Below are positions 1 to 54,689 of a DNA stretch of 64,000 nucleotides, piece by piece. Within the stretch, counting starts at the first letter, position 1, and each line of letters starts with the position of its first letter. The notes under the pieces were generated by a model. The model had not been told where the DNA came from. It saw only the letters and a list, made by a program, of their open reading frames with translations, and searched no databases. Source of the stretch: Mustelus asterias (taxonomy: Eukaryota); NCBI RefSeq assembly GCF_964213995.1, contig NC_135803.1, positions 26,288,001 to 26,352,000 on the forward strand, in the 5' to 3' direction. A program made the position numbers and the translations under genes.

Positions 1-84
1 TGCTACTGAAAGCTTCAGCCATATCTCCACATTTCAGCAATTCTCCTCTGGACTGTGTGCACCAGCGCAGAACATTGGGCATTT
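1..84 (-). CDS. MELTF: Melanotransferrin exon 9, partial (start of C-lobe: MPNVLRWCTQSRGELLKCGDMAEAFSS); runs off the window
   Basis: LRWC....E..KCGDMA.AF matches the melanotransferrin C-lobe start; cttttcttcacacag acceptor in phase 1, compatible with exon 8. Confidence 0.92.
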
Positions 85-3099: not shown

Positions 3100-3274
3100 T
3101 GTAGCAGTCAAGTCCATTCAAGGATTGGAGATATTCTGAGCCTAACCAGGCCTGATAGGTTTGATTCTTGATGAGCATGAATTCTTTGGTGGAGTCCTGG
3201 AACAGCAAGTCTTTGCTATCGTATGAAGCAGAATCAAACATCTTAAAGCCAGTGGAAGTAATGCCAAACTTTTT
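3100..3274 (-). CDS. MELTF: Melanotransferrin exon 8 (KKFGITSTGFKMFDSASYDSKDLLFQDSTKE...YQAWLGSEYLQSLNGLDCY)
   Basis: F.MF.S..Y..KDLLF.DST and WLG.EYL motifs typical of melanotransferrin; ttacag acceptor and A|gtaagt donor; 175 bp, phase 0 to 1. Confidence 0.95.
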
Positions 3275-3732
3275 CTGTAAGTAAAGGATTTTTGTTTCAA
3301 ATGAATTGTTCGATGTAATTGCCTTTCTTCAGAGTTACCTAATTCACTACCATCACAGGAAAGAGGTGAGCTTGCCTGCATGTTGGTTCAGGGTCTATGA
3401 CAACCAGTGAGATTGAAGAGTTACATTTTTTGTTTTAACACAGGCTAACTTAAAACTATACAATTGTATTGCTTTGTGTGTGCTATGCAGTTAATAGTTC
3501 ATTTTATTGTGCTGTTAACTCTCAAGGTGAAACATCACTCCCAAACTTATTTTCTCAGCCTAAATGCAAATAGATCTCACTTGTACTCCACATGGGGATT
3601 TACAAATGACAATAAAGCATAATCCCTGCCACAGGACAGCCAAACCTGCCTCACCTACTTCTGAAGTGCAGTATTGACTGAATGCGAGTTGTCGCACCCT
3701 GTGTGTGGTGTTCCAAACACCTGGAGGCACTT

Positions 3733-5140
3733 AAGAACATAAGAACATAAGAAATAGGAGCAGGAGTAGGCCATCTAGCCCCTCGAGCCTGCCCCGCCAT
3801 TCAATAAGATCATGGCTGATCTGACGTGGATCAGTACCACTTACCCGCCTGATCCCCATAACCCTTAATTCCCTTACCGATCAGGAATCCATCCATCCGC
3901 GCTTTAAACATATTCAGCGAGGTAGCCTCCACCACCTCAGTGGGCAGAGAATTCCAGAGATTCACCACCCTCTGGGAGAAGAAGTTCCTCCTCCTCAACT
4001 CTGTCTTAAACCGACCCCCCTTTATTTTGAGGCTGTGTCCTCTAGTTTTAACTTCCTTATTAAGTGGAAAGAATCTCTCCGCCTCCACCCTATCCAGCCC
4101 CCGCATTATCTTATAAGTCTCCATAAGATCCCCCCTCATCCTTCTAAACTCCAACGAGTACAAACCCAATCTCCTCAGCCTCTCCTCATAATCCAAACCC
4201 CTCATCTCCGGTATCAACCTGGTGAACCTTCTCTGCACTCCCTCCAATGCCAATATATCCTTCCTCATATAAGGGGACCAATACTGCACACAGTATTCCA
4301 GCTGCGGCCTCACCAATGCCCTGTACAGGTGCATCAAGACATCCCTGCTTTTATATTCTATGCCCTTCGCAATATAGGCCAACATCCCATTTGCCTTCTT
4401 GATCACCTGTTGTACCTGCAGACTGGGCTTTTGCGTCTCATGCACAAGGACCCCCTTTGCACGGTAGCATGTTTTAATTTGTTTCCATTGAGATAGTAAT
4501 CCCATTTGTTATTATTTCCTCCAAAGTGTATAACCTCGCATTTCTCAACGTTATACTCCATTTGCCATATCCTCGCCCACTCACTCAGCCTGTCCAAATC
4601 TCTCTGCAGATCTTCTCCGTCCTCCACACGATTCACTTTTCCACTTATCTTTGTGTCGTCTGCAAACTTCGTTACCCTACACTCCGTCCCCTCCTCCAGA
4701 TCATCTATATAAATGGTAAACAGTTGCGGCCCGAGTACCGATCCCTGCGGCACGCCACTAGTTACCTTCCTCCAACCGGAAAAACACCCATTTATTCCGA
4801 CTCTTTGCTTCCTGTCGGATAGCCAGTCCCCAATCCACTTTAACACACTACCCCCAACTCCGTGTGCCCTAATCTTCTTCAGCAGCCTTTTATGGGGCAC
4901 CTTATCAAACGCCTTTTGGAAATCCAAAAACACCGCATCCACCGGTTCTCCTCCATCAACCGCCCTAGTCACATCTTCATAAAAATCCAACATGTTCGTC
5001 AAGCACGACTTTCCCCTCATGAATCCATGCTGCGTCTGATTGATCGAACCATTTCTATCCAGATGCCCTGCTATCTCCTCTTTAATAATGGATTCCAGCA
5101 TTTTCCCTACTACAGACGTTAAGCTGACCGGCCTATAGTC
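3733..5140 (-). mobile_element. Young CR1 LINE 3' fragment (RT near intact, one frameshift)
   Basis: ORFs 4403-5188 and 3831-4505 with YRPVSLTS, LDFQKAFDKVPH, GVPQGSVLGP and FADD; (TTCTTATG)n tail. Confidence 0.95.
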
Positions 5141-5656
5141 ACTTCTCCCAATTCTTTCACAAACTGTCACGTAAATCAAATGACCCAACTCTTTGGCATG
5201 AATTCTATTGTCTAGATTAATAAAGATTTAAAACTTGATGCAAAGCCCTAACCCTTTAAGAAAAATTGGATAATCCCTGAGGGAAGCCACAGAGAAACAA
5301 TGGGGTTGAATCCATGCTACCATGAAGCTTTATTTTCATCCCACCCTACAATGAGTCCTGATTCTATGAATCACCATTTCCCCTCAACTACCAATTCTAT
5401 TGATTCTATTAACCCATGTAAACTTGCTGCTGTATTTTGAAAAATGCATGAATCTGCTGATATGAATCAGGACTGGAATTCTATCACAAGAAGGTTTCAG
5501 TTTACCGATTATTTTCAGATACACATTCTTTCTTGCAGCTAAGCTTTCTGGAGTTTTTTTGCTCTACCGTCACCTCTCAGACAGTCTTTTCTTTTGTCAT
5601 TTGTATGTGAGACTGTTGAGCCAGTCCTCTCCACAATTCCACAACGAGAACTTGAA

Positions 5657-5960
5657 ATCATAGAATCATACAGTGCAGAAGGAGGCCATTCGGCCCATCG
5701 AGTCTGCACCAACCACAATCCCACCCAGGCCCTATCCCCATAACCCCATGCATTTACCTTAACTAGTCCCCTCGACACTATGGGGCAATTTAACATGGCC
5801 AATCCAACTAACCTGCACATCTTTGGACTGTGGGAGGAAACCGGAGCATGCAGACATGGGGAGAACGTGCAGACTCTGCACAGACAGTGACCCAAGCCGG
5901 GAATCAAACTCGGATCCCTGACGCTGTGAGGCAGCAGTGCTAACTACTGTGCCACTGTGT
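5657..5960 (-). mobile_element. HE1-type tRNA-derived V-SINE with CR1-like tail (other copies: about 6178-6353 +, 20350-20561 -, 29363-29660 +, 41262-41573 -, 50401-50700 -)
   Basis: A-box TGGCACAGTGG and B-box GGTTCGATTCC head, central GGGTTTCCTCCGGGTGCTCCGGTTTCCTCCCAC domain, (TTCTATGA)n tail. Confidence 0.9.
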
Positions 5961-6587
5961 TCTGGCCCAGTTTCATGAACTTTACCAGAAGCTCAATCAT
6001 TCTTTCCTGCGATCCCAAGCGGGATTTAAATCTCTGGTTTGAATGACAATTCATCCCACATTTCTTAAATGTTTTTGGGTCTTAAATTTGTTCATTGACA
6101 TCTGGTACATCCCAGCCTCAGAGCACCAGAAACTGTCAATGCATTCTGCATTATCCAATTCCTCAGTAATCTAATCACGTTAGGTGGATTGGCCAGGCTA
6201 AAATTGCCCCTTAGTGTCCTGAGATGCGTAGGTTAGAGGGATTAGCGGGTAAATATGTAGGAATATGGGGGTAGGGCCTGGGTGGGATTGTGGTTGGTGC
6301 AGACTCGATGGCTTAATGGCCTCTTTCTGCACTGTAGGATTTCTATGATTCTAGTCAAAAAGAAATGTGTTCACTTTCCAGGCTAGCTAGTCGAAATCCT
6401 TCAGGCCAGATCTTCCTTCCAGGAATATCATATACAGTAATTGACAAGACACCCTCAAGTGTAGGTATAACTAATATATCGCCAGAAAGGCTACAGTAAA
6501 TCAATGAGATGTTTCAGAGAATTATATATTTATCTCTGTTTACTATGCGTGATGATTACTTGAACCATCTTTCACTTCTAGGAATAG

Positions 6588-6779
6588 TGAGAAGTCTCAC
6601 AACACCAGGTTAAAGTCCAACAAGTTTATTTGGAATCACGAGCTTTCAGAGACTCATCTGATAAAGGAACAGCGCTCTGAAAACTCGTGATTCCAAATAA
6701 ACCTGTTGGATTTTAACCTGGTGCTGTGAGACTTCTCACGGTGCCCTCCCCAGTCCAATGGTGGTATCTCCACCTCATG
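6588..6779. mobile_element. Miniature fold-back Penelope-derived element with about 14-bp TSD
   Basis: About 62-bp inverted arms made of the same Penelope terminus, with a degenerate hammerhead core in the loop. ACTTCTAGGAATAG is present at 6574-6587 and 6780-6793. Confidence 0.85.
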
Positions 6780-7510
6780 ACTTCTAGGAATAGCACTCCC
6801 GAAATCCCAATTACTGGCCTTGTTAACACATGGAAACTAGTTCCAAACAGTACAAATATCTGATACTTTGGGAAATAAGGCACTGAGAAACACTATTGGA
6901 ATTAACTATTGGTTTAAGCAATAACTAGGTGAGTTTCTGGAATGCGAAGGGATTTAATTCAAGATGATTGGCAAAAGATCCAGAGGCTTCAGAGTGTAGA
7001 ACTTATTTAGCTAACAGGTGGTTAGGATTTGGAATCCACCGCTTGATTGGGTGGTGGAAACAGATAGAATAGTCGCGTTTAAAAGAGAATTGGACAAGCA
7101 CATGAAGGATAGAAATTGTAAGGATATTGCGAGAATGGAACTGAACCACTGTTCAACACAAAATGGCCTCCTTCTGTGCTGTACTATTCTACAATAAGAT
7201 GAGTGGAGCTAATTTATGAAAACAGAACAGCTTTGTCAGCCAAGTTGCCTTTACTTAAACGCTAATTCTTGTGGTATATGTCCAAATCCAAGAATAAGTT
7301 TATAATACTAAGGTTTACAGTCTTAACTTAATACAGTAATTAACTCCACAATTTCTGAAGTACTGTATTACTTCTGCACTTTTCATATTCTTGATTCAAA
7401 AGGCATTTCAACTAAATAAATAGATTAATTTTCTCTTGTCCATAAATATCCTTCGAAGTTTTTTTTAAAGGCTCTTTTATAATTGCTCTGTCAGCAGGAA
7501 ATCTCCATAC

Positions 7511-7698
7511 CTGAGCAGCATCCAGAGCATTGAAGACAGCTGTGCCATCAGTATCCAATCTGACTACAACTGCACGGGCAGGCACTCTGGCAAGATGGCA
7601 TGCCTTCCAATCTGTTACTTCAGCACGGCTTCCATTTCGGCACAGAAGCTGATAGTCGCTTGAATGAAGGTCTTTTGCCCATGCCATGGGATTATTTC
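7511..7698 (-). CDS. MELTF: Melanotransferrin exon 7 ([23 protein letters not shown]...[14 protein letters not shown]...AAQ)
   Basis: LLC..G.R and CHLA.VP..AVV motifs; ttttacag acceptor and CAG|gtatgg donor; 188 bp. Confidence 0.95.
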
Positions 7699-9751
7699 CT
7701 GTAAAACAGTTTATTGACGTCTTTGGCCAAATCAGACTATTTTTCTGATTCACATAATTCACATTTCTCAAGTACCAATGCAATTATAATTTACAGCAGC
7801 CTAGTAAAAATTGCAGCTGCGATTGTTACGTTTACAGAGTCTGTGATACAAAAAGCGACAGCTTATCAGTGCTGCCTCATTCAGTATTTACTTCATCATA
7901 CTTTGGGGCAATGCCTAGCATTCATAGACACTATATGCCTAACACTGGCTCAACTGAGGACATGGCAAATGTATCCTAATCTGGAGCAAGCAAACGTGAT
8001 TGACTTGAGCTCAAGTGCTCTACCACTTGAGCTGAGAGATTACATCAGTCCCAAATCTGTTGTTAAAAAGCAAAATCAAGCATTTCACTGGCATGGGGAA
8101 CAAAACACAGTCAGGAGTGGGGGGAAGGAAGAGGAAGAACAAGTAACCCTTGAACAAACTCACAGCTGTCATAGTGACACAATTACAAACAGTCATTCTC
8201 CAGTACCACAGAGTGCCATGCCTCTCAGCCAGTCACAGCTCCAGTGTTCTTGTGTATGTTACACAAGGGCTTATATCATCCCTGCCATACATCAGATCTG
8301 CAGGCTGTGCTAACGTAGATTCTGAATGTGTTGGCTAACTGCTTTTCTTTCAAGAACTCTACAAGCAGGTACAACCCAGATAGTCCTTCACTGAGAGTAA
8401 CAAATGTTAGAACTCATGGAACACACTTGCAGATAAGGAACCCACATAATTAAAATGGGACTAGCATAATGCTTTTGATGCAGATTTATAAAGCAAAGTA
8501 CTCCAATGATAACTGCATCAGGACATGAACATCCCATGATTTGTCCTTACTCTAGAAGACTGCTTGTGCTTAGGGAACTAATAATTATACCTTTCCTGGC
8601 ATCCAACCATCGAACACAGAAATTGCTCTTTGCTCCCTAGACGTGAATTTTAACCTAGTGAGACTGACGAGATAATCTATCTGTCTCTCCTTTTACGTAA
8701 GATACAAGATTTGATCACATGAAAAGTCTGACCATGTGATGATGCCTGTAACTGTTATTTAATTGACCTTTTTATAGATTGGGTCCCTGTGGTTGAGTTT
8801 GGTTTGTGGTTTTGTGCCAACGGCAGTTGTGTGCAAAGTCACAACAACCAGGGGGCCATCAGTGAGCAGGCAAAGAGGTGAAACCCAGAGTGGGGAAGAG
8901 GGAAAACCAAAGTTGGAGGGGGTCATTCACAAAGGGAAAATCAGAGATGAGTGAAACATGGGATCCACCAGTAATTAATAATAGTTCACAGAAATTGTGC
9001 CGATAAGTAAGACTGAAAGGACTCAAATTTCCCCTGAAATCGGCACTAACGTAATAGATCACTAAAAATGCCCATATTCTGTTTGTAGCAGGTGCAATGC
9101 CCCAATATTCTATCTATATCTAGAACACACAAGAAATAAAAGCAGGAGTTGGCCACCAGGCCCTTCAAGCCTGCTCCACCACTCAATACCATCATGGCTA
9201 ATCTATGTCGCCCTCAGCTCCTTTGCTGTGCCATTTCCCCATAGCCCTCTATTCCGTTATCTATTAAGAACACAAGAAATACTAAATCGGAACCCTATGA
9301 TCCACTGATATTCATCAGAAACTCCCTGCATTGCATAAAGTGCAATCAGGCTGCCTAGCGGAGAACACTTTTAACAGGTCTGATCTCCCTCGCTATCCTT
9401 TGTTTGGATTCAGTTTGTGCGTGGAAGTAGTGGAAGCTTCAATTAGCGATGATTTGTACATAGGCTTCACTCCTCAAAACGGTGCCAGCACAAAGGAATC
9501 TGAACCATAGAGCTGTGTGTTTGACGTTCAGGAGAGCACACAGAGGGCCCATTGTCCTAAATCACATTCCACGTGTAAGACAGTCAGTGAGAAAGGCCAT
9601 GGGTTTTTTTTTTAAACCACCAGTGCCACAATTAGCAAAGGGAAGACAAGTAAACTAAACCAATCCAGTTTGCATATCATAATATGACAGTATTCCTTTA
9701 ACAGATCAAACATAAATGGGACAGGATGTAGAAAGTTACACTGTTACTCAC

Positions 9752-9819
9752 CATCCGTATTCTCTGGCACAGTCGAATGTTTAACAAAAGCAATATCACC
9801 CGCTTGTTTAGCTAGGCAC
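9752..9819 (-). CDS. MELTF: Melanotransferrin exon 6 (CLAKQAGDIAFVKHSTVPENTDG)
   Basis: CL...GD.AFVKH motif; cttcag acceptor and ATG|gtgagt donor; 68 bp. Confidence 0.95.
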
Positions 9820-11295
9820 CTGAAGCGAAAGAGAGGTATGTTTAAATAGCCAGGTACAGGTAAAATGTATGTTGATTGTAAGATGTCAAAGCAGTGCCAA
9901 ATGATACAGCTGTATGTTGTTATTCCCCCAGCTACCCCACCCTTCTATCTCCAATCCTAAACAGCAAAGCAAAGCCAAACCATCCACAAAATGTAACAAT
10001 CAGCATCCAGAACAAAACACGATGCGAACGTTTTTTTGCCAAATTGGGATCAAATATCCAAGAACTTGTGGGTTATGTGTTTACGTTTAATAACTTTTTC
10101 CATCAGTGCCATTTGCTGCCAATTACACAACTGTAACCCGTGGAGTAAGGAGTGGAGTTCTACACGTATGCAATTCCAGTGGGGAGAAAAGTTTGTATTT
10201 CAAAAACTCATGTACCCTTGGTGGCACAGCATACAACAGCAGGGTGCACTGAAGCAGAAAGCTTCAATCTCCACCTCTCCGTTGAGTTCCTGACCTCAGC
10301 CTCATTATTATGAAGAGAACCAGTAGTTCACAGAATCATTATCGAGCCACCAAGAAACTCATTAAAGAGAAGTACTGGCAAAGCTGACACTAGATCATCC
10401 AGAGGTTCATTGATGCTTGTATGATCCCTGGGAAAAATAAAGGAATTTTAACCAACTTTTATCGAGGCTAAGTTTCTCAATGATGTACTTGGGGCTGGTA
10501 AATCGCTTCAAAATATTTATGCCGTGTCTCATGTTTTGAGGGTCTGGTGAATCAGAACACTCAAAATTACTCAACCAACTAAAGTATCTCACAGGTCAGC
10601 AGCATGGTATTCCATGCAACGGAACACAAGTGTGTATAGAACAGGAAAATATAGTGGCTGCTAAAGGTCCTCTGAGGTAGCCAAGAAGAAAGCCGGTTTT
10701 ACTCGCCATTTTGGTAACTGGAGTTGAAGCGCACATTTGGGTCAGCTACCAGGAGGATCACTTAAATGCTGATTACCATTTAAACTGCCTGCTGCTGTTG
10801 TCAAGGAGAGTGCCTACTACTTTGGTCACAAGTTCTTGGCTGAACAGTAACCAGCTATTTGGGAACTAACAAGACACTGATTTCAAGCACTACTTAAAAG
10901 GATACTCACCACTTCATGTTTACTTGCTGTGGATGCTGTGAAAAGGACCTCAGGAGCATGTCTAGGACGCTTTGTGAAGACTTCACTAGCACTCTAAGAA
11001 TATTTATTCTGCTAATTCCATAGGACTTTCTCAAATGATTGAATGCTGTCCTACTCCATTTTATAGGATCACCAGAATGCTTGGTCATCAGCATCTGGCT
11101 ATGGGGTCCCCCTGGGTTTGCAGGAGGGATAGAAGAAGGGCACGAAGCAAGGCAGAGCAGCAGCAGAGGAGAAAAGGAGGGTGAGATGGCATCCTTCCCC
11201 TCTGCATTGACAGGACATCCCCTCTTCTCTGGATGGCCTCTCACCGTAAGAAGTCTCACAACACCAGGTTAAAGTCCAACAGGATTATTTGGCAG

Positions 11296-11330
11296 CACGA
11301 GCTTTCGGAGTCTCGCTCCTTCATCAGGTG
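11296..11330 (-). ncRNA. Minimal hammerhead ribozyme motif in the Penelope-like element, sense to MELTF intron 5
   Basis: RNA reads CAC-CUGAUGA-A-GGAG(cgaga)CUCC-GAAAGCU-C-GUG: core boxes, stem I CAC/GUG, stem II and palindromic AGCU stem III. Confidence 0.65.
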
Positions 11331-13516
11331 AGTGAAGGCTTGTGTTCCCAAACAGGTCATATAAAGACACAAACTCAATTTACAAGATAATGGTTGGAAT
11401 GCAAGTCTTTACAGGTAATCAAGTCTTAAGGGTACAGACAATATGAGTGGAGAGAGGGCCAAGCACAAGTTAAAGAGATGTGTATTGTCTCCAGGACAGC
11501 TAGTGAGATTTTGCAAGCCCAGGCAAGTCGTGGGGGTTACAGAAAGTGTGACATGAACCCAAGATCCCAGTTGAGGCTGTCCTCATGTGTGCAGAACCTG
11601 GCTATCAGTTTCTGCTCAGCGATTCTGCATTGTGTGTTGTAAAGGCCGCCTTGGAGAACGCTTACCCGAAGATCAGAGGCTGAATGCCCGTGACTGCTGA
11701 AGTGTGAACTGGAAGGGAACACTCCTGCCTGGTGACTGTCGAGCGGTGTTCATTCATCCATTGTGGTAGCGTCTGCATGGTCTCTCCAATGTACCATGCC
11801 TCAGGATATCCTTTGGGTGGAAGCTGGAGAAGTGGAGCATCGTGAGGTTATCCGTGGGCTTGCAGTACAGTGAAGTGCAGCGTATCAGGTAGACAATGTT
11901 GGCTGAGTCGCAAGAGTATGTACCGTGTACCTGGTGGATGGTGCTCTCACGTGCAATGATGGCATCCGTGTCGATGATCCGGCACGTCCTGCAGAGGTTG
12001 CTGTGGCAGGATTGTGTGGTGTTGTGGACAATGGTCTGTTTGAACTTGTGCGGTTGGTTTGAAGGCAAGAAGTGGGGGTGTGACAATGACCTGGGCGAGA
12101 TGTCGTAGCTTCTCCGCTCCGGGAAAGTATTGGACGACGAAGGGTACTCTGTCCGCCGTGTCCCGTGTTTGTCTTCTGAGGAGGTCGGTGCGGTTTTTCG
12201 CTGTGGCACGTTGGAACTGTTGATCGATGAGTATGCCAATATCTTTATGCACAGGTTTGAACAAGACCTCTTCACCGCACAGGACCTCCAACCGAAGCTA
12301 TACACTAAATACATCGATGACATTTTCTTCCTTTGGACTCATGGCGAACAATCATTGAAACAACTATATGATGACATCAACAAGTTCTATCCCACCATCA
12401 GACTCACCATAGACTACTCTCCGGAATCGGTTGCATTCTTGGACACACGTATCTCCATCAAGGATGGTCACCTCAGCACCTCACTGTACTGCAAGCCCAC
12501 GGATAACCTCACGATGCTCCACTTCTCCAGCTTCCACCCTAAACACGTTAAAGAAGCCATCCCCTACGGACAAGCCCTCCGTATACACAGGATTTTCTCA
12601 GATGAGGAGGATCGCAACGGACACCTACAGACGTTGAAAGATGCCCTCATAAGTACAAGATATGGCGCTCGACTCATCGATCGACAGTTTCGACGTGCCA
12701 CAGCGAAAAACTGCACCGACCTCCTCTGAAGACAAACATGGGACACGGCGGATAGAGTACCCTTCATCGTCCAGTACTTCCCCAGAGCGGAGAAGCTATG
12801 ACATCTTCTCTGGAGCCTTCAAACAGACCATTGTCCACAGCAAACTACCCAGCCTTCAGGAGAACAATGACCACGACACCACACAATCCTGCCACAGCAA
12901 GCTCTGCAAGATGTGCCGGATCATTGACACGGATGCCATCATCTCACGTGGGAACACCATCCACCAGGTACACGGTACATACTCTTGCAACTCGGCCAAC
13001 GTTGTCTACCTGATATGCTGCAGGAAAGGATGTCCTGAGGCATGGTACACTGGGGAGACTATGCATATACTACCACAACAGATGAATGAACACCACTTGA
13101 CAATCACTGGGTAGGAGTGTTCCCTTCCAGTCGGGGAACACTTCAGCAGTCACGGGCATTCAGCCTCTGATCTTCGGGTAAGCGTTCTCCAAGGCGGCCT
13201 TCACGACACACAACGCAGGATCGCTGAGCAGAAACTGATAGCCAAGTTCTGCACACATGAGGACGGCCTCAACCAGGATCTTGGGTTCATGTCACACTAT
13301 CTGTAACCCCCACGACTTGCCTGGGTTTGCAAAATCTCACTAACTGTCCTGGCAGGAGACAATACACACCTCTTTAACCTGTACTTAACTCTCTCTCCAC
13401 TCACATTGTCTGTACTTTTAAGACTTGATTACCTGTAAAGACTCGCATTCCAACCATTATCTTGTAAATTGAGTTGGTGTCTGTATATGCCCTGTTTGTG
13501 AACACAAGTCCTCACT

Positions 13517-13551
13517 CACCTGATGAAGGAGCAAGACTCCGAAAGCTAGTG
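13517..13551 (+). ncRNA. Minimal hammerhead ribozyme motif (Penelope-like element)
   Basis: CAC-CUGAUGA-A-GGAG(caaga)CUCC-GAAAGCU-A-GUG. Confidence 0.65.
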
Positions 13552-14754
13552 CTGCCAAATAAATCTGTTGGACTTTAACCTGGTGTGGTGAGACTTCTTA
13601 CTGTGTGCTTACCCCAGTCCAACACCGGCATCTCCACATCATGGCCTCTCACCACCAGTGTCATATCCAATAATCTGTTAGCACTGTTCCTTTAAACCAC
13701 CCTGTCGACTGCCAATGTTCACTAGCCAGCGCACTCTGCACCTTTAATGGAAGTATGTGGGAGGAGCCCATGTATGCGCTATGGAAATTGCATCTAATTA
13801 ACACTTGAGTGCTCAACCTTCAAGTTTCTGGTTTAGCACCTGCAGTTAAATTCAAATGATGGTAATCAGTGGTTAGGACCAAAACTACAAGCTAAACCAT
13901 TTTCAGAAGCCTTGATTTATTATCACAGCACTCACTTACTGCCTGTTTTCACCCTCGGGTACTTCTCATTCCACAACATAAAACATTTTGTAATCCCACA
14001 TTACTGTTTCTCTTGTTCAGAGAATTATGAATGCAAATTTCTTGTTGTAGTAACCCTCCAATAACTGAGCTACAGTCATTAAACCAAAGGCTTATTATAT
14101 ATTTAAGTTTTTTTTGTTAGTGTCACAAGTAGGCTCACATTAACACTACAATGAAGTTACTGTGAAAATCCTCCAGTTGCCACACTCCGGCGTCTGTTCC
14201 CGTACACTGAGGGAGAATTTAGCGTGGCCAATGCACCTAACCAGCACGTCTTTCAGACTGTGGGAGGAACCCGGAGGAAACCCACACAGTGTAGAGGGAT
14301 ATGGTCCCCAGAAGGGTAGGTGGTTTTAGTTCAGTCGGGCAGTATGGTCGGTGCAGGCTTGGAGGGCCGAAGGACCTGTACAGCACCTGTTGCTGTAATT
14401 TTCTTTGTTCAGACAAGGGGAGAACATGCAGACTCCGCACAGACAGTGACCCAAGCCGGAAATTGAACCTGAGTCCCTGGCGTTGTGAGGCAGCAGAGCT
14501 AATCACAGTGCCACCGTGCCGCTATTTATCAAGACTTTTTTTGCCATCATCATTCCACAACAGTTTTGTGGTGCGCTACAGAGAAGGGACTGAACCTGGG
14601 AACTTGCAGCTGTAAGAATTGGGACTACACCCATTAGGCCAGTAAAAGGGATCATTCATGTGATCTTTATATTACATACTGTAAAGTGCTTTAAATGGTT
14701 GTGAAACTATTTGTTACAATTTACAATAAAAGGTCAGATGTTGAAATGTTATAC

Positions 14755-14911
14755 CTGAATGCCCCACTGTCGCTATAATACCTCTCTCCAGCATTGTCTG
14801 CACATTTATTTTCACTTTTTTCATCACCGATACACAACTGGCAAAGGCTTGATGGAAAATTTATATGTTGAGCTCCAGGGATGCAACTTTGACTGAAAAA
14901 CTCACTCACAG
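14755..14911 (-). CDS. MELTF: Melanotransferrin exon 5 ([13 protein letters not shown]...LCQLC...[11 protein letters not shown])
   Basis: FF..SC.PG, LC.LC and SGAFR motifs; canonical AG/GT boundaries; 157 bp. Confidence 0.95.
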
Positions 14912-15231
14912 CTGGAAAGAAGCAAAATAAATAATTAAGCAGCAGTGATCAGACTTGTAAGGGCATCTTGTTGATAGTCCACCTTGAATCAGAAGCTTCT
15001 GTCATTAATTAAAATTGGACTCAGAATTCGTTTGCACAAACTTCAGTTTGGATTACTGAATAAAGTTGTGAGACAAAGACTTAAAAAAAATTCCAGGGAA
15101 TTTTAACTGTTAACACAAGGTGGGAGATAAACAATAGAAAATTAGTTTATACTAAGCCTGATGGTCTCTTTTATCCTTAGTCCCTAATTTACTGAGGATC
15201 AATGTCAAGTTCCTGGATGCATTACAATTGT

Positions 15232-15571
15232 TTTATTATTCATTCGTGGGACATGGATGTTGCTGACTGGCCAGCATTTATTGCCCATCCCTAGTTGCCC
15301 TGGAGGGCAGTTGAGAGTCAACCACATTGTTGTGGCTCTGGAGTCACATGTAGGCCAGACCAGTTAAGGACGGCAGATTTCCTTCCCTAAAGGACATGAG
15401 TGAACCAGATGGGTTTTTCCGACAATTGACAATGGTTTCACGGTCATCAGTGATCCATCAATTCAAATTCCACCATCTGCCATGGTGGGATTCAAACACG
15501 GGTCCTCAGAACATTAGCTGAGTTTCTGGATTAATAGTCTGGTGATAATACCACTAGGCCATCGCCTCCCC
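15232..15571 (-). mobile_element. Second tRNA-derived SINE family (decayed copies at about 15700-16050, 19420-19730, 22030-22540, 27045-27400 and 36125-36340)
   Basis: tRNA-like head GGGGAGGCGATGGCCTAGTGGTATTATC...GTTTGAATCCC; tail GGGATGGGCAATAAATGCTGGCC...CCCACGAATGAAT. Confidence 0.8.
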
Positions 15572-16949
15572 TCTGCCCAGCTTTACACTCAAAAAAGCTT
15601 TTGATTACCCACTGTCCAAATAAAATGGGTGTCCTTAAAAGGTCTGTTATTTTGTGGTTCTTCTCAGCTGTCTGCAATTTTCCACCCACTCAGCTGAAAG
15701 GCTAGGGTAGCAGAGTGGTTATCTTACTGGACTACTGGCCCAAAACTAATAGTCTAGGGATAATGAGTTTAAATCCAGTGTGGCAGCTTGAGAATTGGAT
15801 TTTGGTTTTTAAAATAATTGCTATCATTAAAAGTGATAGTGAAGCTGCCAGATTTTTTTTTAAACCTAGCTGGTTCATTGATATATGTATAAAGTTGTCC
15901 CAGCCTAAATGAGATTCCAGTCCCACACCAATGTGGGATTGAACTCCCTTCTGCAGTAGCCCAACAAGCCACTTAGTTACATCACTAAGATGAGAAACAA
16001 ATAGCATCCTTACCAACAGTGCTCATGTCCTGAGAGTCAATGTTTTAAAATGAATCAGGCTGGCAAGTGTCAAAATAGAATACTCTGGATGTGTTTATAG
16101 GAGTGGTTCTAAACAATAAGATCTGTAAATTGTACAATCTTTAACTTCTTCCCATTCTGATGTAAGATTATTGACCTGAAATGTTAACCCTGAGCATTTT
16201 CTATTTTAAGTCTTGCAGCAGTAATTTGAGAGCATGTTTGAAGCTTTTCTCTTGCTATTGCTATTTTGTTTCTTTCCACCTTTTTGGTCAAGGCGCTGTG
16301 TGTTCTGGGACTATCATATTTTTGGTATATTCACCATACTGGGATAGTGATTTTTCCACTGGGGTTTCCCACCTGTCCTTGTGTTTGTCAAAGGAAAAAG
16401 AGGAGAGATGCCAAGCCTGTCAGCTTGCTTCAGAGGTGAGCTGTGCTGACTCACTGCTAACCTCATACCCAGTTTAGGGCCTAGCGACCTGACAGTGAAT
16501 GTTCAGAACTGGCTCCTCAGCAAAAAGAAAGAACATTTGAATCATCTGTACAAGTAAGGACCCTTACAGTTAACATGCGTTATAAAGCCAACACTGTCTG
16601 TGGCTGTGCTCTCAGTTGCACCTTCAGTTATTCTCTGTCATGTCTAAGGCATGTTGAAATGTTTTCCTATGGTGAAAGTGCCCTAAAGTGACAAAGAGGG
16701 TCCCTCTTGTTTCTACTACATCATTGCCAGACATCAAATAGGAATTTCATGTACTTTATCACACTATCATTTGGCCAGAGACTGTTTCCTACCTTCACAT
16801 TTGTCATGACAACTACTGGATACTTTGTTGAAACATATCCAGTTGAAAAATATGAGCAGCCGTTCCAAATGCTGCGAACATTTTTGCTCCATATGTGGCC
16901 CTGTACCTTTAAGGATTCTTTTAAATCTAGTCATCAGCTCTTGTAAGTA

Positions 16950-17940
16950 ATCGGTTCTGGGTCCACTGTTATTTGTCATTTATATTAATGATTTGGATGA
17001 GAATTTAGGGGGCATGGTTAGTAAGTTTGCAGATGACACCAAGGTTGGTGGCATAGTGGACAGTGAAGAAGGTTATCTCGGATTGCAACGGGATCTTGAT
17101 CAATTGGGCCAGTGGGCTGACAAATGGCAGTTGGAGCTTAATTTAGATAAATGCGAGGTAATGCATTTTGGTAGATTGAACCAGGGCAGGACTTACTCAG
17201 TTAATGGTAGGGCGTTGGGGAGAGTTCCAGAACAAAGAGATCTAGGGGTACAGGTTCATAGCTCCTTTAAAGTGGAGTCACAGGTGGACAGAGTGGTGAA
17301 GAAGGCATTCGGCATGCTTGGTTTCATTGGTCAGAACATTGAATACAGGAGTTGGGATGTCTTGTTGAAGTTGTACAAGACATTGGTATGGCCACATTGG
17401 AATACTGTGTACAGTTCTGATCACCCTGTTATAGAAAGGATATTATTAAACTAGAAAGAGTGCAGAAAAGATTTACTAGGATGCTACCAGGACTTGATGG
17501 TTTGAGTTACAAGGAGAGGCTGGATAGACTGGGACTTTTTTCTCTGGAGCGTCGGAGGCTGAGGGGCGATCTTATAGAGGTCTATAAAATAATGAGGGGC
17601 ATAGGTCAGTTAGATAGTCAATATCTTTTTCCAAAAGTAGAGGAGTCTAAAACTAGAGGGCTGAGGTTTAAGGTGAGAGGGGAGAGTTGCAAAGGGTCCA
17701 GAGGGGCAATTTTTTCACACACAGGGTGGTGAGTGTCTGGAACAAACTGCCAGAGGTAGTCGTAGAGGCGGGCACAATTTTGTCTTTTAAAAAGCATTTA
17801 GACAGTTACATGGGTACGATGGGTAAAATGGGATATGGGCCAAATGCGGGCAATTGGGACTAGCTTAGGGGTTTACAAAAAAGGGCGGCTTAGACAAGTT
17901 GGGCCAAAGGGCCTGTTTCCATGCTGTAAACCTCTATGAC
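16950..17940 (+). mobile_element. CR1 LINE 3' fragment
   Basis: SKFADDTK and LFSLERRRLRGDLIEVYKI motifs, then the 3' UTR. Confidence 0.92.
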
Positions 17941-18807
17941 TTTAATCTTTAAGGACAGTTTACATGCAAGTTCCTGATCTGCTTTGTGATGAGCTCCTAA
18001 GGTAAGGCTTGATCTGGGCCAAGAACTCACCTATATTGTATGACAGAAGTCAAAGCTGCAAAATCAGACAATGCCAGTATGCTCACATCCCAATTAGTGA
18101 CCAGAGGCCTGATCATCTACTTAATGTGTTACTGACCAATCACTGAGAAAGGTATCAACAATGATAGAGAAATTCTTCTTTACCCCAATGACGTAAAGGC
18201 TACTGAAGCCAAGTCCTAAGACGTTTTATGAATAGTTTTTCCTATATTAAAATAAATCATCATGTTATATAAGAGGATTTTTCATATCTGAAGATTTGGA
18301 TCTCCGCCAAAGCCGGTGTAATATTTACAAGGAATTCAGAAGTATGATGAAATTCTCTCCTGTGGCCTGGATGAGTGCAGCTCCAATCACACTCAAGAAG
18401 CTCAACACTATCCAGGATAAAGCAGCCCGCAATGGGTAAATGACTGTGCCTAAAGTGGAAACTGTGAGAAAATGTAATTGTAGGAAATTGGACAAAATGG
18501 AATAGATGATAACAGAAATAGGAAGTGTATGTACATATGCAGAGCAAGAGTGGATAATGGAGAGGCAGAGAAAATTACACAAAAGATTGACAGAAAGATA
18601 AACAGATGAGACAGGGAGCAAGACACATAGAATGAAGGAGGCAGATTGACAGAGACAGAAAGTGACGGATGAGAGACAGAAATAGCAACAAATGGTTATA
18701 GAGTGGTTGATGAGGGAGAGAGAGGTAGACACAGCAAGAAAGACAGAAACAGACAGAAAATGCAATCCACAGACACTGCCGTTAAGAATCAGTTACTTCA
18801 GCTTTAC

Positions 18808-18993
18808 CTTGTGGAATGTTACAACCCATTACGGACATCTTCCCTGTGTTAATCAGATAGCCAATAGGAGCACTCCATCCTGCTGCCTCATCATATCCAG
18901 TGTGACAGGATTTTAATGCTTTCAGATTGTTGATAGTGATTGAAGAGTTTGATTTTTTGACAACAGCTACTGCATAATAAAGGGTTCCAGCTT
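18808..18993 (-). CDS. MELTF: Melanotransferrin exon 4 ([13 protein letters not shown]...[20 protein letters not shown]...MGCNIPQ)
   Basis: YYAVAVVKK and SCHTG....GW transferrin signatures; ttctttag acceptor and AAG|gtaaag donor; 186 bp, phase 1 to 1. Confidence 0.95.
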
Positions 18994-19764
18994 CTAAAGA
19001 AGCAAGAAAGAAACAGAAAATGTAATAGCGCCAAATTAGTCAAAATAAATCAAACAGACCAGTTGAATGTATCAGAATTTCAACAGTACAACTCAATGCC
19101 ACACCAGACATTGTTTCTACCCACAGAACTGTTAGGAGATCTCAAACACGCTTAAAATATCCTTCAGTCTCCACCCCTCCTCCACCCAACATATAAATGA
19201 CTTTATAAACTAACCCAATTCCCTTTGCAGATTCTCCTACAAATCTCAAGATTTTTTTTCACAGGAGAAAAAGATGGAGGAGCATTTTTGCTCCTGATCC
19301 TTAAGTTATTCCGAACAGTCAGCCGTCCACTTCAACTTTTAAAACAGGAGCGTGGGGACGGGCAACCAAACCACCACAGGGAGGCAGGTTGCCCATTCAA
19401 ATATTTGAATTAATCCCAGACATCAAGAAACCCGTCGGCTAAAGGGAGGTGAAGACTGCTTGTGGGCCAGCAGGGACTGGAGTACCTGTTTGACCACTTG
19501 AGAGGGAAGATGGGAATCAACTTTGTTGGTATGGGCTTGAGTCACCGTTGGAACAGACTGGTTAAGGTCGCCAAGGTTCCTTACATGAAAGACATTAGGG
19601 AACCAGCCGTAATATTTATGGTGACCCACGGATTCACAATCACTGTTACTGATTTCCAGGTTTACTGCCATAGTGGGGTTTGAACTCAGGTTTGCTGGAT
19701 TATAAACCCACACTGTCAGATTGTTAATCCTATAACATGGCCCTGTGTGGCCAGGCGCACCCAG

Positions 19765-21170
19765 CTCATTTCAGTACAGCCTTAGTCCAAACATAGACAA
19801 AAGTGCTGAACTCAAGAGGTGAGGTGAAAGTCACTACTCTTGACATCAACGTAGCATTTGACTGGGTGTGGTATCAAGGAGCCCCAGCAAAACAGGAATC
19901 AATGGGAATTAGTGGTTGCGGTCATAATTAGCATAAAGAAAGATGGTTGTGGTTGTTGGAGGTTACTCCCAGGACATCACTGCAGGAGTTCCTCAGGGTA
20001 GTGTCCTAGGCCCAACCATCTTCAGTTGCTTCATCAATAATCTTCCCTCCATCATTAAGTCAGAAGTGGGAATGTTTGCTGGTGATTGCACAATGTTGAA
20101 CACCATTTGCGATTCCTCAGATACAGAAACAGTTCATTACAAATGCAGCAAGACCTGGACAACATTTAGGCTTGGATTGATAACTGGCAAGTAACATTTA
20201 CATCACACAAGTGCCCGGTAATGACGATCTCCAGCAAGAGAAAATCCAACCATCTCCCTTTGACATTCAATGGCATTACCGCCGCTGAATCCCCCCATTA
20301 TCAACATCCTAAGAATTTCCATTGACTATAACTGAACTGGACTAGCCATATAGAATCATAGAATCCTACAGTGCAGAAGGAGACCATTCGGCCCATCGAG
20401 TCTGCATCAACCAGAGGGAGGCCATTCGGCCCATCGAGTCTGCACCGACCACAATCCCACCCAGGCCCTATCCCTGTAACCCCACATATTTACCCTGCTA
20501 ATCCCCCTGACACTGGGGTCAATTTAGCATTGCCAATCCACCTAACCTGCACATCTTTGGACTATATAAATACTGTGGCTACAAGAGCAGGTCAGAGGCT
20601 GGGAATTCTGTAGTGAATAACTCACTTCCTGACTTCTCCAAAGCCAGTGCAATATCCACAAGGAAGAATTCAGAAGTGTGATGGAATTCTCACCACTTGC
20701 CTGGATGGGTGTAGCTCCAACAACACTCAAGAAGCTCAACACCATCCAGGATAAAACAGCCCACTTGATTGGAACCCCATCCCCCACTTTCAACATCCAC
20801 TTCCTTCAATCTCAATGGACTGTGGCAGTAGTGTCTACCATTTACAAGATGCACTGCAGCAACTCACCAAGGCTCCTTGGGCAGCATCTTCTATACCCAC
20901 GATTATTACCACCTAGAAGGATAAGGGCAGCAGATACATGGGAACACCAGCACCTGCAAGTTCCCTCCAAGTAACACTCCATCCTGACTGATAAATATAT
21001 CGGCATTCCTTCACTGTCGCTGGGTCAAAATCCTGGGACTCCTTCCCTAACAGCACCGTGTGTGTACCTACATATATGGTGCAAGAAGCCAACCCACCTT
21101 CTCAAAGGCATCTAGAGATGAGCAACAAATGCTGGCTTAGCCAACGATAGTCACATCCCATGAAAGAAAT
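19765..21170 (+). mobile_element. CR1-clade LINE (distinct family) 3' fragment, interrupted by a SINE at about 20350-20561
   Basis: AGVPQGSVLGPTIFSCFIN.L..MFA.D motifs; its 3' tail is shared with the SINE family at 15232-15571. Confidence 0.85.
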
Positions 21171-21236
21171 TGAAAAGAACTACACTACCATACCCATTAT
21201 TAATGGTAATAATCGCTGGGTCTCTATGTGTTGTAC

Positions 21237-21336
21237 CTTGATCAGAGGTCTCACCAATGACAGGCTTTAGCTTATGCTCCTTTGCCGCCTGATAGAGAGT
21301 CCCAGCATCCAACGACATTGCATCTGCTTCTTTGTT
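21237..21336 (-). CDS. MELTF: Melanotransferrin exon 3 (NKEADAMSLDAGTLYQAAKEHKLKPVIGETSDQ)
   Basis: ADA..LD motif with the Asp63-equivalent; cag acceptor and AAG|gtacaa donor; 100 bp, phase 0 to 1. Confidence 0.95.
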
Positions 21337-25948: not shown

Positions 25949-26103
25949 CGCTATCTTTTTCGCACAGTCCAATGCTGAGGTTGCTATAACACAGGATATT
26001 GAAGGATGTATTTTAGCAGATTCAAAAGCTTCCTTCATTTGGTTGCACTTGATCAACTCAAGATTGGAAATAACGCACCATCGAATCTCCTTTAACCCAC
26101 ATG
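25949..26103 (-). CDS. MELTF: Melanotransferrin exon 2 (CGLKEIRWCVISNLELIKC...LDCAKKIA)
   Basis: Transferrin lobe start motif RWC...E..KC; ttcctgcag acceptor and GCG|gtatgt donor; 155 bp, phase 1 to 0. Confidence 0.93.
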
Positions 26104-32131: not shown

Positions 32132-32210
32132 CCAAATTGAAAATGCCGACTAAAATGCACACAGCCCACAGAGCGGAACCCTGCCTGGTCCGTCCCATGA
32201 TAAAACCCAT
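32132..32210 (-). CDS. MELTF: Melanotransferrin exon 1 (signal peptide MGFIMGRTRQGSALWAVCILVGIFNL-A)
   Basis: First in-frame ATG after an upstream in-frame TAA, with an alternative ATG at 32198. Basic N-region followed by a hydrophobic core. Ends in phase 1 at G|gcaagt, which joins exon 2 in frame (..NL A CGLKEIRWC). Confidence 0.75.
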
Positions 32211-51985: not shown

Positions 51986-53052
51986 AGAAATCCAATAGAA
52001 GATAAATGTCAGATTGCATCAGGATGTTTTTTTATCAGCAAAGCGCATGTAATCTCACTAAAATACTGGCAAGACATTTGTACAAGATCAACCTTTATGA
52101 CCAGGGGTTGTTTGTGGGAACCGGGTAGGTGGAGGTATTTGTATTGAGTTTGCATTTTGTGGATGCTGTCTTATAAAACAAGCTTTCACAAAACTATCCT
52201 ATGGCAAAGTATCAGGTTTTTCTTCAGTCTCTGTTTCACATCCACATTTGTTAGCTCTGTTTATAACTCCATCTTCATGGTGGGACAAGAGGAAATTATA
52301 GAGTTAAAAGGTAGTTGGCAGTTTCCAGGAATGGTCTAGTAACTCTTGCTTTCTTGATTAAAATGCTTCAGAGATTTGTTACTTTCGTTCCCTGATGTTT
52401 TTAAGAAGCTGGAATATGGTTTTTCTTTATTAGGATGAAACCTCAGTGAAGTATTCTACCGTGACCAAAAACAATAGCCCAGAAGAGGAGTTCAATCAGG
52501 AAACAATGATTAGATGATCCCAAATATGTGTTTTGAAAGCTTAGGGATTGTAGGAGTAATTGAAGACTGAAGGGGTAAGAATTTTTAATAGATTTTAAGT
52601 TTTGGAAAGGAATGATTTTGAGCACAAATTAAAGTAGCAAGTCACACTGAGAACACAAGGAAGACAGTGTAATTGTCATTTGAGAGGAAAAGAGTAATGA
52701 CCATATTAGTTTTTGATTATATTGATAAAGGTTGTCCATGAGGGAGCTTGGAGCCCAGAGGTGAGAGAAGGATCATCAATCAAATTTCTTGTATCTCATC
52801 AATGAGTAAAAGAGGAAAAGAAGTGTTTACCGCAGGGAAAAAAATCTTGTTCCCTTCAGCCAGCTTTAGCAATACAAGAGATGCAGTTCTATTAGAGATC
52901 AGTGGAGATAGTGAGATCAAGAATTGGAGGAGACTAAGATGAAATGAACAAAGGTAAGAGATACTAATTTGATGGCAGGATTTTGTAGCATTTATAATAC
53001 TTAAATATAGTTTGCTTTTGTCATTTCAGATGCATCTTTGTTTTCTTTACAG

Positions 53053-54689
53053 GTGACATTTTGAACCTCAAAACTTTCCGTACTTGGGAATTCAATGCAA
53101 GCCACCCCAGCAGATCAGTTCTGTTCCCGTTGGTCACAACTGGATTTTCATTCACAATACTTAAAGTTTTACACAATTCTGACCTTTTTGGCAGCATTCT
53201 AAACAGCTACAGTTTGTTGGTTTTCCCAAGATTCTACCTGACATGCCTGTCCTTTATACTAGACTATTCTGTATACCATTTAGCCTGTCTCTGGGGAACA
53301 GATCCATGGCATGCTTTAACACTGCTGAGTGGGTCACACGTGATGCTGGTTTTTTACACCAGGACATTTTCAAATGTTATAGAAGCAGCTCTTTTTGCAT
53401 TACTGCTGCTGTTGGTGGCCATGGACATAAAGCGAGCAAGCGTGGCACCGCATCCTGGGAAAAAGGAAAGAAAGAACAATAAACATCTTATCGGGATTGT
53501 TTTGGTTTCAGGTTTTTTTAACAGACCCACATTCATTGGTTATGCTTTAGTACCAATGCTCCTGTGGCTTTCTCATGATCAGAAAGGCACATTTCAATTC
53601 TGTTTAACACAAATTGTGAAGAATTTGTTTGGTCTTTTGTCTTCTGTAATTGCAACCAGCTTTCTTTTCATTGTGACAGATGCCTTGTATTTTGGTTCAT
53701 TGTTGTCTGGAACGGATTGGCTTTTGAAAGACGGGAATACCATGTATTCACTATTTGTCAACATAAGCCAATGTCTAGTTTTAACCCCTGTCAATCTCAT
53801 TTTGTATAACTTGGACCGAAAAAGCCTTATTGCACATGGTAGTCATCCCTGGTTTACACATCTGACTGTGAATGGCTTGCTGCTGTTTGGTGCTCTTCAT
53901 GTATCTGCTGTTGTAACTGGTGTCAAAACAATGGTCAGCAAACTTGCCTGCAAAGCCAACTGTCATATTTCTCGCAATGACAATTTGAAAAAGGAATTGC
54001 CAGCGCAATGTCCTGCTGCTACTCAAATTACTGAATACTTATTGTTGGTTTATTTTATCCCTATCATCATTCTGTCAATGTTTAGTCATCAGGAACCACG
54101 CTATATTAGCCCACTCATTGTGCCACTTGTTATTCTCAGTGCTCCAAAGTGTGAAATGCTGAAGTGGAAAGTTGTAATAGTCCTGTTTAATGTCTTGGGG
54201 TCAGTGCATTTTGGTTGTCTGCACCAGGGTGGATTAATTCCTTGTCTGTCCTATTTAGAAAAAACACTTCACTCAAAGAATCCTCTGGCTAACCCACTTG
54301 AGCATAGTTTGGTATTTTACCACACCTACATGCCTCCTAGGTATCTCCTGAATGTTAAATCGGACCAGGAGTTTACTCGAATCATTGACCTGGCAGGGTC
54401 CGATGTGTCTATGCTCAATAACACAGTGAATGGGCTATTTGACAATTTCTCTTCTAAACACATGGGCAATAATCAGGAAATGAATATCTACATCATCGCA
54501 CCTGGCACTGTTCAGGATGATATTGATAACTGTGGTTTACAGTGGAAAACTGTTGCATCATTCTTCCCTCATTTAACTATGGAAGATCCTCCTGACATTC
54601 CTTCTCTTCTTTCTGAAGATGGATTGAACCAATTGAGTCTTTACATTTTCAAAGTGCATACAAAGTCAAAGAAATCAGAAACTGAATAG
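53053..54689 (+). CDS. PIGZ: PIGZ exon 3, GPI mannosyltransferase 4 (large terminal exon)
   Basis: Long multi-transmembrane ORF with WEF, RTFSN..E, G.FNRPTF, HG.HP, HQEPR, HQGG, HTYMPP and FPHL..E.PP motifs; ttttctttacag acceptor in phase 1 continues exon 2 (G-DILNLK); TAG stop. Confidence 0.95.

Follow-up and report, generated by a model that had tools for sequence, protein, structure and literature searches.

A degenerate N-lobe and a complete C-lobe ligand set in the melanotransferrin of Mustelus asterias: a probable lobe swap of the iron site in sharks

In its textbook form melanotransferrin (MELTF) holds iron in its N-lobe, and among proteins of transferrin fold saxiphilin and the inhibitor of carbonic anhydrase (ICA) have known non-iron ligands. 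The human MELTF structure has a ferric N-lobe and an open C-lobe, iron being bound in the N-lobe only (PMC7804310). For the cod protein, iron binding by the C-lobe only has already been proposed from sequence (PMC3125230), and five teleost MELTFs combine a His to Arg change in the N-lobe with a complete C-lobe, the same change being present in chicken (PMC3603312). Asp63 is also lost in cod and arowana MELTF; the two sources disagree on the cod Asp. Here we describe the MELTF gene of the shark Mustelus asterias, part of which lies in a 64-kb stretch of contig NC_135803.1 (hereafter the window, meaning the whole stretch), and compare its six ligand positions in both lobes with those of other vertebrates.

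The gene model draws on the window plus 50 kb of adjoining sequence; coordinates are those of the window unless marked G000:C3, and the gene lies on the minus strand (Table 1). Its 16 exons, once spliced, translate exactly to P0001, a protein of 738 residues that bears the NCBI name melanotransferrin from Mustelus asterias and was identical in a protein search to the exon 7 query across its length, so that the frame is intact. Multiple alignments, in which all N-lobe cysteine motifs align, served to assign the R124, Y188, H249 and K296 columns. At the ligand positions 63, 95, 120, 124, 188 and 249 the N-lobe has D, Y, T, E, D and R, three of the six being retained, whereas the C-lobe has D, Y, T, R, Y and H, with all six retained (D430, Y461, T487, R491, Y565 and H633). 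The loss of half the N-lobe ligands beside a full C-lobe set makes it likely that iron is held in the lobe opposite to that used in humans. Our preferred reading, with a probability of roughly 0.7, is that the metal site of the still folded N-lobe decayed after the loss of Tyr188 and that the protein, as a surface or shed one-iron transferrin, holds a single Fe3+ with carbonate in its C-lobe; the pattern is best read as a mirror image of mammalian MELTF.

A sequence-only reading of the window had reported four substituted codons, the retention of Asp63 (SLDAG), Tyr95 (LYYAV) and Thr120, and an intact spliced N-lobe frame with preserved splice sites. The codons (GAG, GAC, CGT and CAG) indeed lie at these sites on the minus strand, each within its quoted motif, the retained residues were recovered in exons 3 and 4, and the exact translation together with GT-AG and GC-AG introns bears out the frame. 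The gene itself reaches past the range given there (3100..21336) at both ends, with exons 1 and 2 on one side and the C-lobe exons on the other. Its claim that the N-lobe is without canonical Fe3+/carbonate binding is very probably correct, given the three lost ligands. It had left a swap of the active lobe open; since the C-lobe set, read from the adjacent sequence, is complete here and in all elasmobranchs compared, the data favour the swap, and it is the C-lobe that decides the interpretation.

The elasmobranch comparison covers 21 sequences, 20 from named species and one a skate-like record without a species name, each species being represented once after isoforms and nearly identical entries had been removed, with the sawshark Pristiophorus as the only squalomorph; no further squalomorph MELTF was found among the best 120 of 237 short proteins listed. 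The C-lobe set is complete in 21/21, the N-lobe set in Pristiophorus alone. Position 188 is occupied by D in 17 sequences, E in three and Y in one; position 124 by R in five, E in five, K in two, T in six and S in three; and position 249 by R in 11, H in seven and N in three. Three skate sequences additionally carry Y95F and T120G or S. The alignment with orthologues, which the sequence-only reading had put forward as a check, thus places the substitutions in canonical ligand columns and finds E124, D188 and R249 recurring individually in other sharks and rays.

Counted as minimum changes on a hand-written species tree, the six ligand columns changed 17 times in the N-lobe and not once in the C-lobe. 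Zero changes at six C-lobe ligands has a probability of P = 0.026; six random N-lobe columns average 9.1 changes (P of 17 or more = 0.061). The R124 column accounts for eight changes, a level reached by 4/319 N-lobe columns. Invariant columns make up 41% of the N-lobe and 55% of the C-lobe, and the ratio of N- to C-lobe divergence is 1.30 in elasmobranchs, 1.23 in nine amphibians, 1.04 in seven sauropsids and 0.81 in nine mammals. Judged by these counts, the N-lobe ligands are unprotected and the C-lobe ligands protected, the N-lobe being kept as a fold.

The wider survey comprised 68 hand-picked vertebrate sequences. Outside the elasmobranchs, complete N-lobe and C-lobe sets were found, respectively, in 0/2 and 0/2 chimaeras, 1/1 and 1/1 coelacanth, 0/5 and 3/5 ray-finned fish, 3/17 and 12/17 amphibians, 7/13 and 0/13 sauropsids, and 9/9 and 0/9 mammals. 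MELTF therefore often keeps one complete site, in a lobe that differs between groups: the C-lobe in elasmobranchs and many other non-amniotes and the N-lobe in mammals and most reptiles; the mammalian-type pattern of a complete N-lobe and a degenerate C-lobe is not that of the shark protein. H249R occurs in 30/68 N-lobes, the other non-His residues being N (three) and Q (two) and never Tyr, Asp or Leu, and is common where MELTF retains Y188 and R124, namely in birds, frogs, teleosts and chimaeras. An acidic N-lobe residue 188 is found in elasmobranchs only (20/68; none in the other 47 N-lobes). In chimaera (P0096, P0098), bichir (P0109, P0455) and bird MELTFs both lobes lack some of the canonical ligands, and these proteins may bind little or no iron.

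The first step on the preferred route would have been Tyr188 to Asp, which disabled the N-lobe site across most elasmobranchs. A human transferrin lobe with Y95F/Y188F binds no iron and is still folded (PMC13505439). Each lineage could then have changed the remaining positions freely (K, E, T or S for R124; R or N for H249; Y95F and T120G/S in skates), and the N-lobe would still have been maintained as a folded domain. Arg249 may be tolerated as a substitute for the absent metal charge beside D63 and D188, and the preference for Arg among the replacements of His hints that a positive charge occupies the empty metal position.

Several points weigh against this reading. Iron binding by either shark lobe is a prediction from residues, and the excess of change at the N-lobe ligands is not significant at 0.05. 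Heterodontus and Carcharodon keep every N-lobe ligand except Y188, and single changes of carbonate residues impair binding, with double changes required to abolish it (PMC7804310). With a single squalomorph in the sample, the order of events given above is tentative. Pure drift need not yield an acidic residue 188 in 20/21 and D63 in 21/21 elasmobranchs, with the caveat that invariance is seen in 41% of N-lobe columns in any case. Nor does a one-site rule hold throughout: both lobes have changes in both chimaeras, in bichirs, in most birds and in 5/17 amphibian sequences, and neither lobe has any in the sawshark, coelacanth, Ascaphus and caecilians, so that one complete site per MELTF appears to be a tendency and not a rule.

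The constancy of these two acidic residues is also the starting point of the alternative that survives best, which we nevertheless regard as unlikely: that the N-lobe has been repurposed, with D63, D/E188 and Y95 forming a carboxylate-rich, carbonate-free site for Ca2+, Mn2+, Zn2+ or an amine. Since such a site would have no need of carbonate, R124 and H249 would be free to change. The absence of an acidic 188 from all other N-lobes surveyed agrees with this, as does the tyrosine of the sawshark, which implies that Asp was gained twice (in rays and in galeomorph sharks) or reverted once; two gains would indicate selection. Teleost otolith matrix protein-1 combines Glu and Asn at 188 and 249 (PMC3603312, Table 1), as do bamboo and epaulette sharks, and Glu is likewise found at the 188 position of another gene in this genome, on C13. 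On the other hand, Y95 is gone in the three skate sequences and many N-lobe columns are equally invariant. Furthermore, Tyr to Asp is a single base change that is also found at the 188-equivalent of the rabbit MELTF C-lobe, and D63 is retained in a transferrin clade read as probably non-binding (both PMC3603312, the former in Table 1). A more specific version is a little more doubtful again: a carbonate-free site binding Ca2+ or another divalent cation, gained twice in parallel to otolith matrix protein-1, with iron passing to the C-lobe. Were it true, MELTF of sharks and rays would be a two-metal membrane protein, possibly linked to mineralised cartilage.

Weak, non-canonical Fe3+ binding by the N-lobe, as a fast-release site in which D63, Y95 and D188 remain and E124 replaces carbonate, is improbable. 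Three carboxylates and one phenolate are indeed left, and single carbonate-site mutants retain some binding (PMC7804310), but one tyrosinate and the histidine are lost, Arg occupies the metal position and E124 is present in just 5/21 species. Least credible is the purposely remodelled cleft suggested in the sequence-only reading, in which a concerted charge swap (E124, D188 and R249) would lock the cleft by salt bridging or, as with saxiphilin and ICA, give it a new ligand. Mustelus asterias does carry all three residues, and Arg seems favoured at 249, but E124 and R249 occur together in this species only (1/21; 1/5 of E124 and 1/11 of R249 sequences), position 124 is highly changeable, K296Q is private to it (1/68), H249R is frequent in MELTFs with Y188 and R124 intact, and the other lobe, unlike in saxiphilin, retains a complete iron site. 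Judged by this distribution, the four substitutions are not one concerted design.

The identity of the gene as MELTF is supported by domains, phylogeny, fold and synteny. Pfam PF00405 (Transferrin) matches two stretches of the protein (E 2.5e-213). A FastTree phylogeny covering 51 lobes and short proteins puts the N-lobe within the MELTF N-lobes (support 0.96) and the C-lobe within the MELTF C-lobes, separate from serum transferrin and otolith-protein-like sequences, which rules out an otolith-protein identity or the conversion of a whole lobe from a paralogue. The C-terminus has a small-residue stretch followed by a hydrophobic tail, a candidate GPI-anchor signal, and aligns with other MELTFs. 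Among solved structures the Glu-bearing exon best matches human melanotransferrin (6xr0). An AlphaFold2 model built with 124 sequences (pLDDT 93) likewise has 6xr0 as its best structural match, with a TM-score of 0.68, the other transferrins listed reaching about 0.40, a preference that fits the unusual inter-lobe packing described for MELTF (PMC7804310).

An open reading frame on one flank matches Glyco_transf_22 and is PIGZ-like. On the other flank, about 42-44 kb before the window, are exons that match the DLG1-like part of P0090 at 84-90% identity. PIGZ and DLG1 are the neighbours of human MELTF, and the shark gene thus has the synteny expected of an orthologue. Both neighbours are on the plus strand with MELTF between them on the minus strand. 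The bird gene model P0090 fuses DLG1 to MELTF, implying one shared strand in birds, relative to which, as to the human arrangement, shark MELTF looks locally inverted.

Artefacts of assembly or annotation were considered as well. The exact 16-exon frame and the sharing of substitutions with other species rule out an assembly error or a pseudogene, an assembly error in particular because D188, R249 and E124 are each found in further shark or ray species. Contigs of sequencing run X1 over the Gln and Arg exons have no differing letters; X1 is possibly the source sample and hence not independent. A single-lobe gene ending at exon 8 is likewise excluded, since the apparent stop is intronic and lies beyond the GT donor. 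Fourteen introns are GT-AG and one, intron 1, is GC-AG. Retroelement remnants lie in or near the gene (Table 1); three retroelement frames match Pfam RVT_1, and the region at 3.7-6.7 kb is very high-copy in read contigs.

Table 1. Features of the MELTF locus of Mustelus asterias (window coordinates unless marked G000:C3)
Feature	Position	Strand	Remarks
MELTF exon 1	32132..32210	-	Start codon and hydrophobic, signal-peptide-like stretch; GC-AG intron follows
MELTF intron 1	32131-26104	-	GC donor
MELTF exon 2	25949..26103	-	N-lobe begins
MELTF exon 3	21237..21336	-	D88 (= Asp63) retained; D in 21/21 elasmobranch sequences
MELTF exon 4	18808..18993	-	Y118 (= Y95) and T143 (= T120) retained
Codon GAG, E147	18887..18889	-	Exon 4; replaces carbonate-holding Arg124
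MELTF exon 5	14755..14911	-	
Codon GAC, D221	14769..14771	-	Exon 5; replaces iron ligand Tyr188
MELTF exon 6	9752..9819	-	K239 (= K206) retained
MELTF exon 7	7511..7698	-	
Codon CGT, R290	7574..7576	-	Exon 7; replaces iron ligand His249
MELTF exon 8	3100..3274	-	N-lobe finishes; GT donor at its end, no stop
Codon CAG, Q337	3197..3199	-	Exon 8; replaces Lys296
MELTF exon 9	1..84	-	C-lobe begins; exons 9-16 run on to G000:C3:26263217
Retroelement remnant	3834-5227	-	
Retroelement remnant	11757-13111		
Retroelement remnant	16951-17451	+	
Retroelement remnant	41344-41850	-	
Neighbouring open frame	52998..54686	+	Pfam Glyco_transf_22 (PIGZ-like)
DLG1-like exons	G000:C3 ~26243600-26245950	+	

Other members of the transferrin family are encoded elsewhere in the genome. 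With three tandem transferrin-like genes at G000:C3:71.62-71.84 Mb (L002-L029), the shark has further candidates for the transport of serum iron. In genes 1 and 2 the motifs read are canonical or differ at the anion site, which is Lys in the first lobes of both and Gly in the second lobe of gene 2. The first lobe of gene 3 has Arg at the His249 position; in P0361 and P0380, shark proteins similar to it, His stands at the Asp63 position and Arg or Gln at that of His249. A further gene at G000:C13:56.87-56.95 Mb (L014, L025, L030) has Pfam matches worth one lobe only and, besides its Glu at the Tyr188 position, Asn at Thr120, and is reminiscent of otolith matrix protein-1. P0188 from Stegostoma (1030 residues, labelled serotransferrin-like) has three matched stretches and is possibly a three-lobe protein or a fused gene model.

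The sequence-only reading had expected novelty to fall if such substitutions were already documented across fish melanotransferrins. This applies to the lobe swap, proposed for cod, and to N-lobe H249R, published for teleosts and chicken; the elasmobranch route via Y188D/E is apparently new, as no text on this state was found in open PMC and bioRxiv, the Lambert 2005 and 2012 reviews, which may tabulate fish data, lying beyond that scope. In the available parts of PMC3603312 the word 'shark' is absent, and those of PMC13213057 and PMC6826671 hold nothing on shark ligands; PMC6826671 cites high MELTF expression in rabbit cartilage. Melanotransferrin has been detected in Greenland shark plasma via a match to a bamboo shark entry, with no ligand analysis in the available parts of that report (PMC13701976). 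The general idea of a lobe swap having been published, the gain is moderate, and it bears on the open question of MELTF function. The vertebrate survey suggests that N-lobe iron is the amniote state. Ancestor-like forms (sawshark, coelacanth, tailed frog and caecilians) have two complete sites, and other lineages have lost one or the other through different residues, an argument that MELTF requires no more than one iron site, together with a second folded lobe that has a different task. Sharks and their relatives offer a graded natural series in this respect, from no lost ligand in the sawshark through Y188D only in horn and white sharks and three in Mustelus asterias to five in skates.

Compared with the described systems, the shark protein is closest to human MELTF (p97, CD228; 6xr0), its orthologue, with 56% identity, the best sequence and fold match, two lobes, a hydrophobic C-terminal tail and one complete and one degenerate site. 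The difference is that iron binds to the human N-lobe, the human C-lobe having lost its Asp, Thr and Arg, whereas the complete set of the shark is in the C-lobe. With teleost MELTF it shares a complete C-lobe and the N-lobe exchange of His249 for Arg (PMC3125230, PMC3603312). Teleosts, however, keep Tyr188 and Arg124 and have lost the His; in elasmobranchs Asp63 is kept and Tyr188 is lost, often together with Arg124. Because the sawshark and coelacanth are complete in both lobes, the two N-lobe losses probably occurred independently. Otolith matrix protein-1 has an acidic residue at Tyr188 as in sharks, and Asn at His249 as in bamboo and epaulette sharks, but it is a single lobe without Asp63 and by database label forms a branch apart from the MELTF lobes; within this branch the single-lobe proteins of lungfish and coelacanth retain all six ligands. 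Saxiphilin and ICA, like the shark N-lobe, have a transferrin fold with lost iron ligands; they are changed in both lobes (PMC3603312, Tables 1-2), whereas shark MELTF keeps one complete site and is not known to have another ligand. The shark case is well supported by comparison and is likely an independent route to the lobe swap proposed earlier for bony fish.

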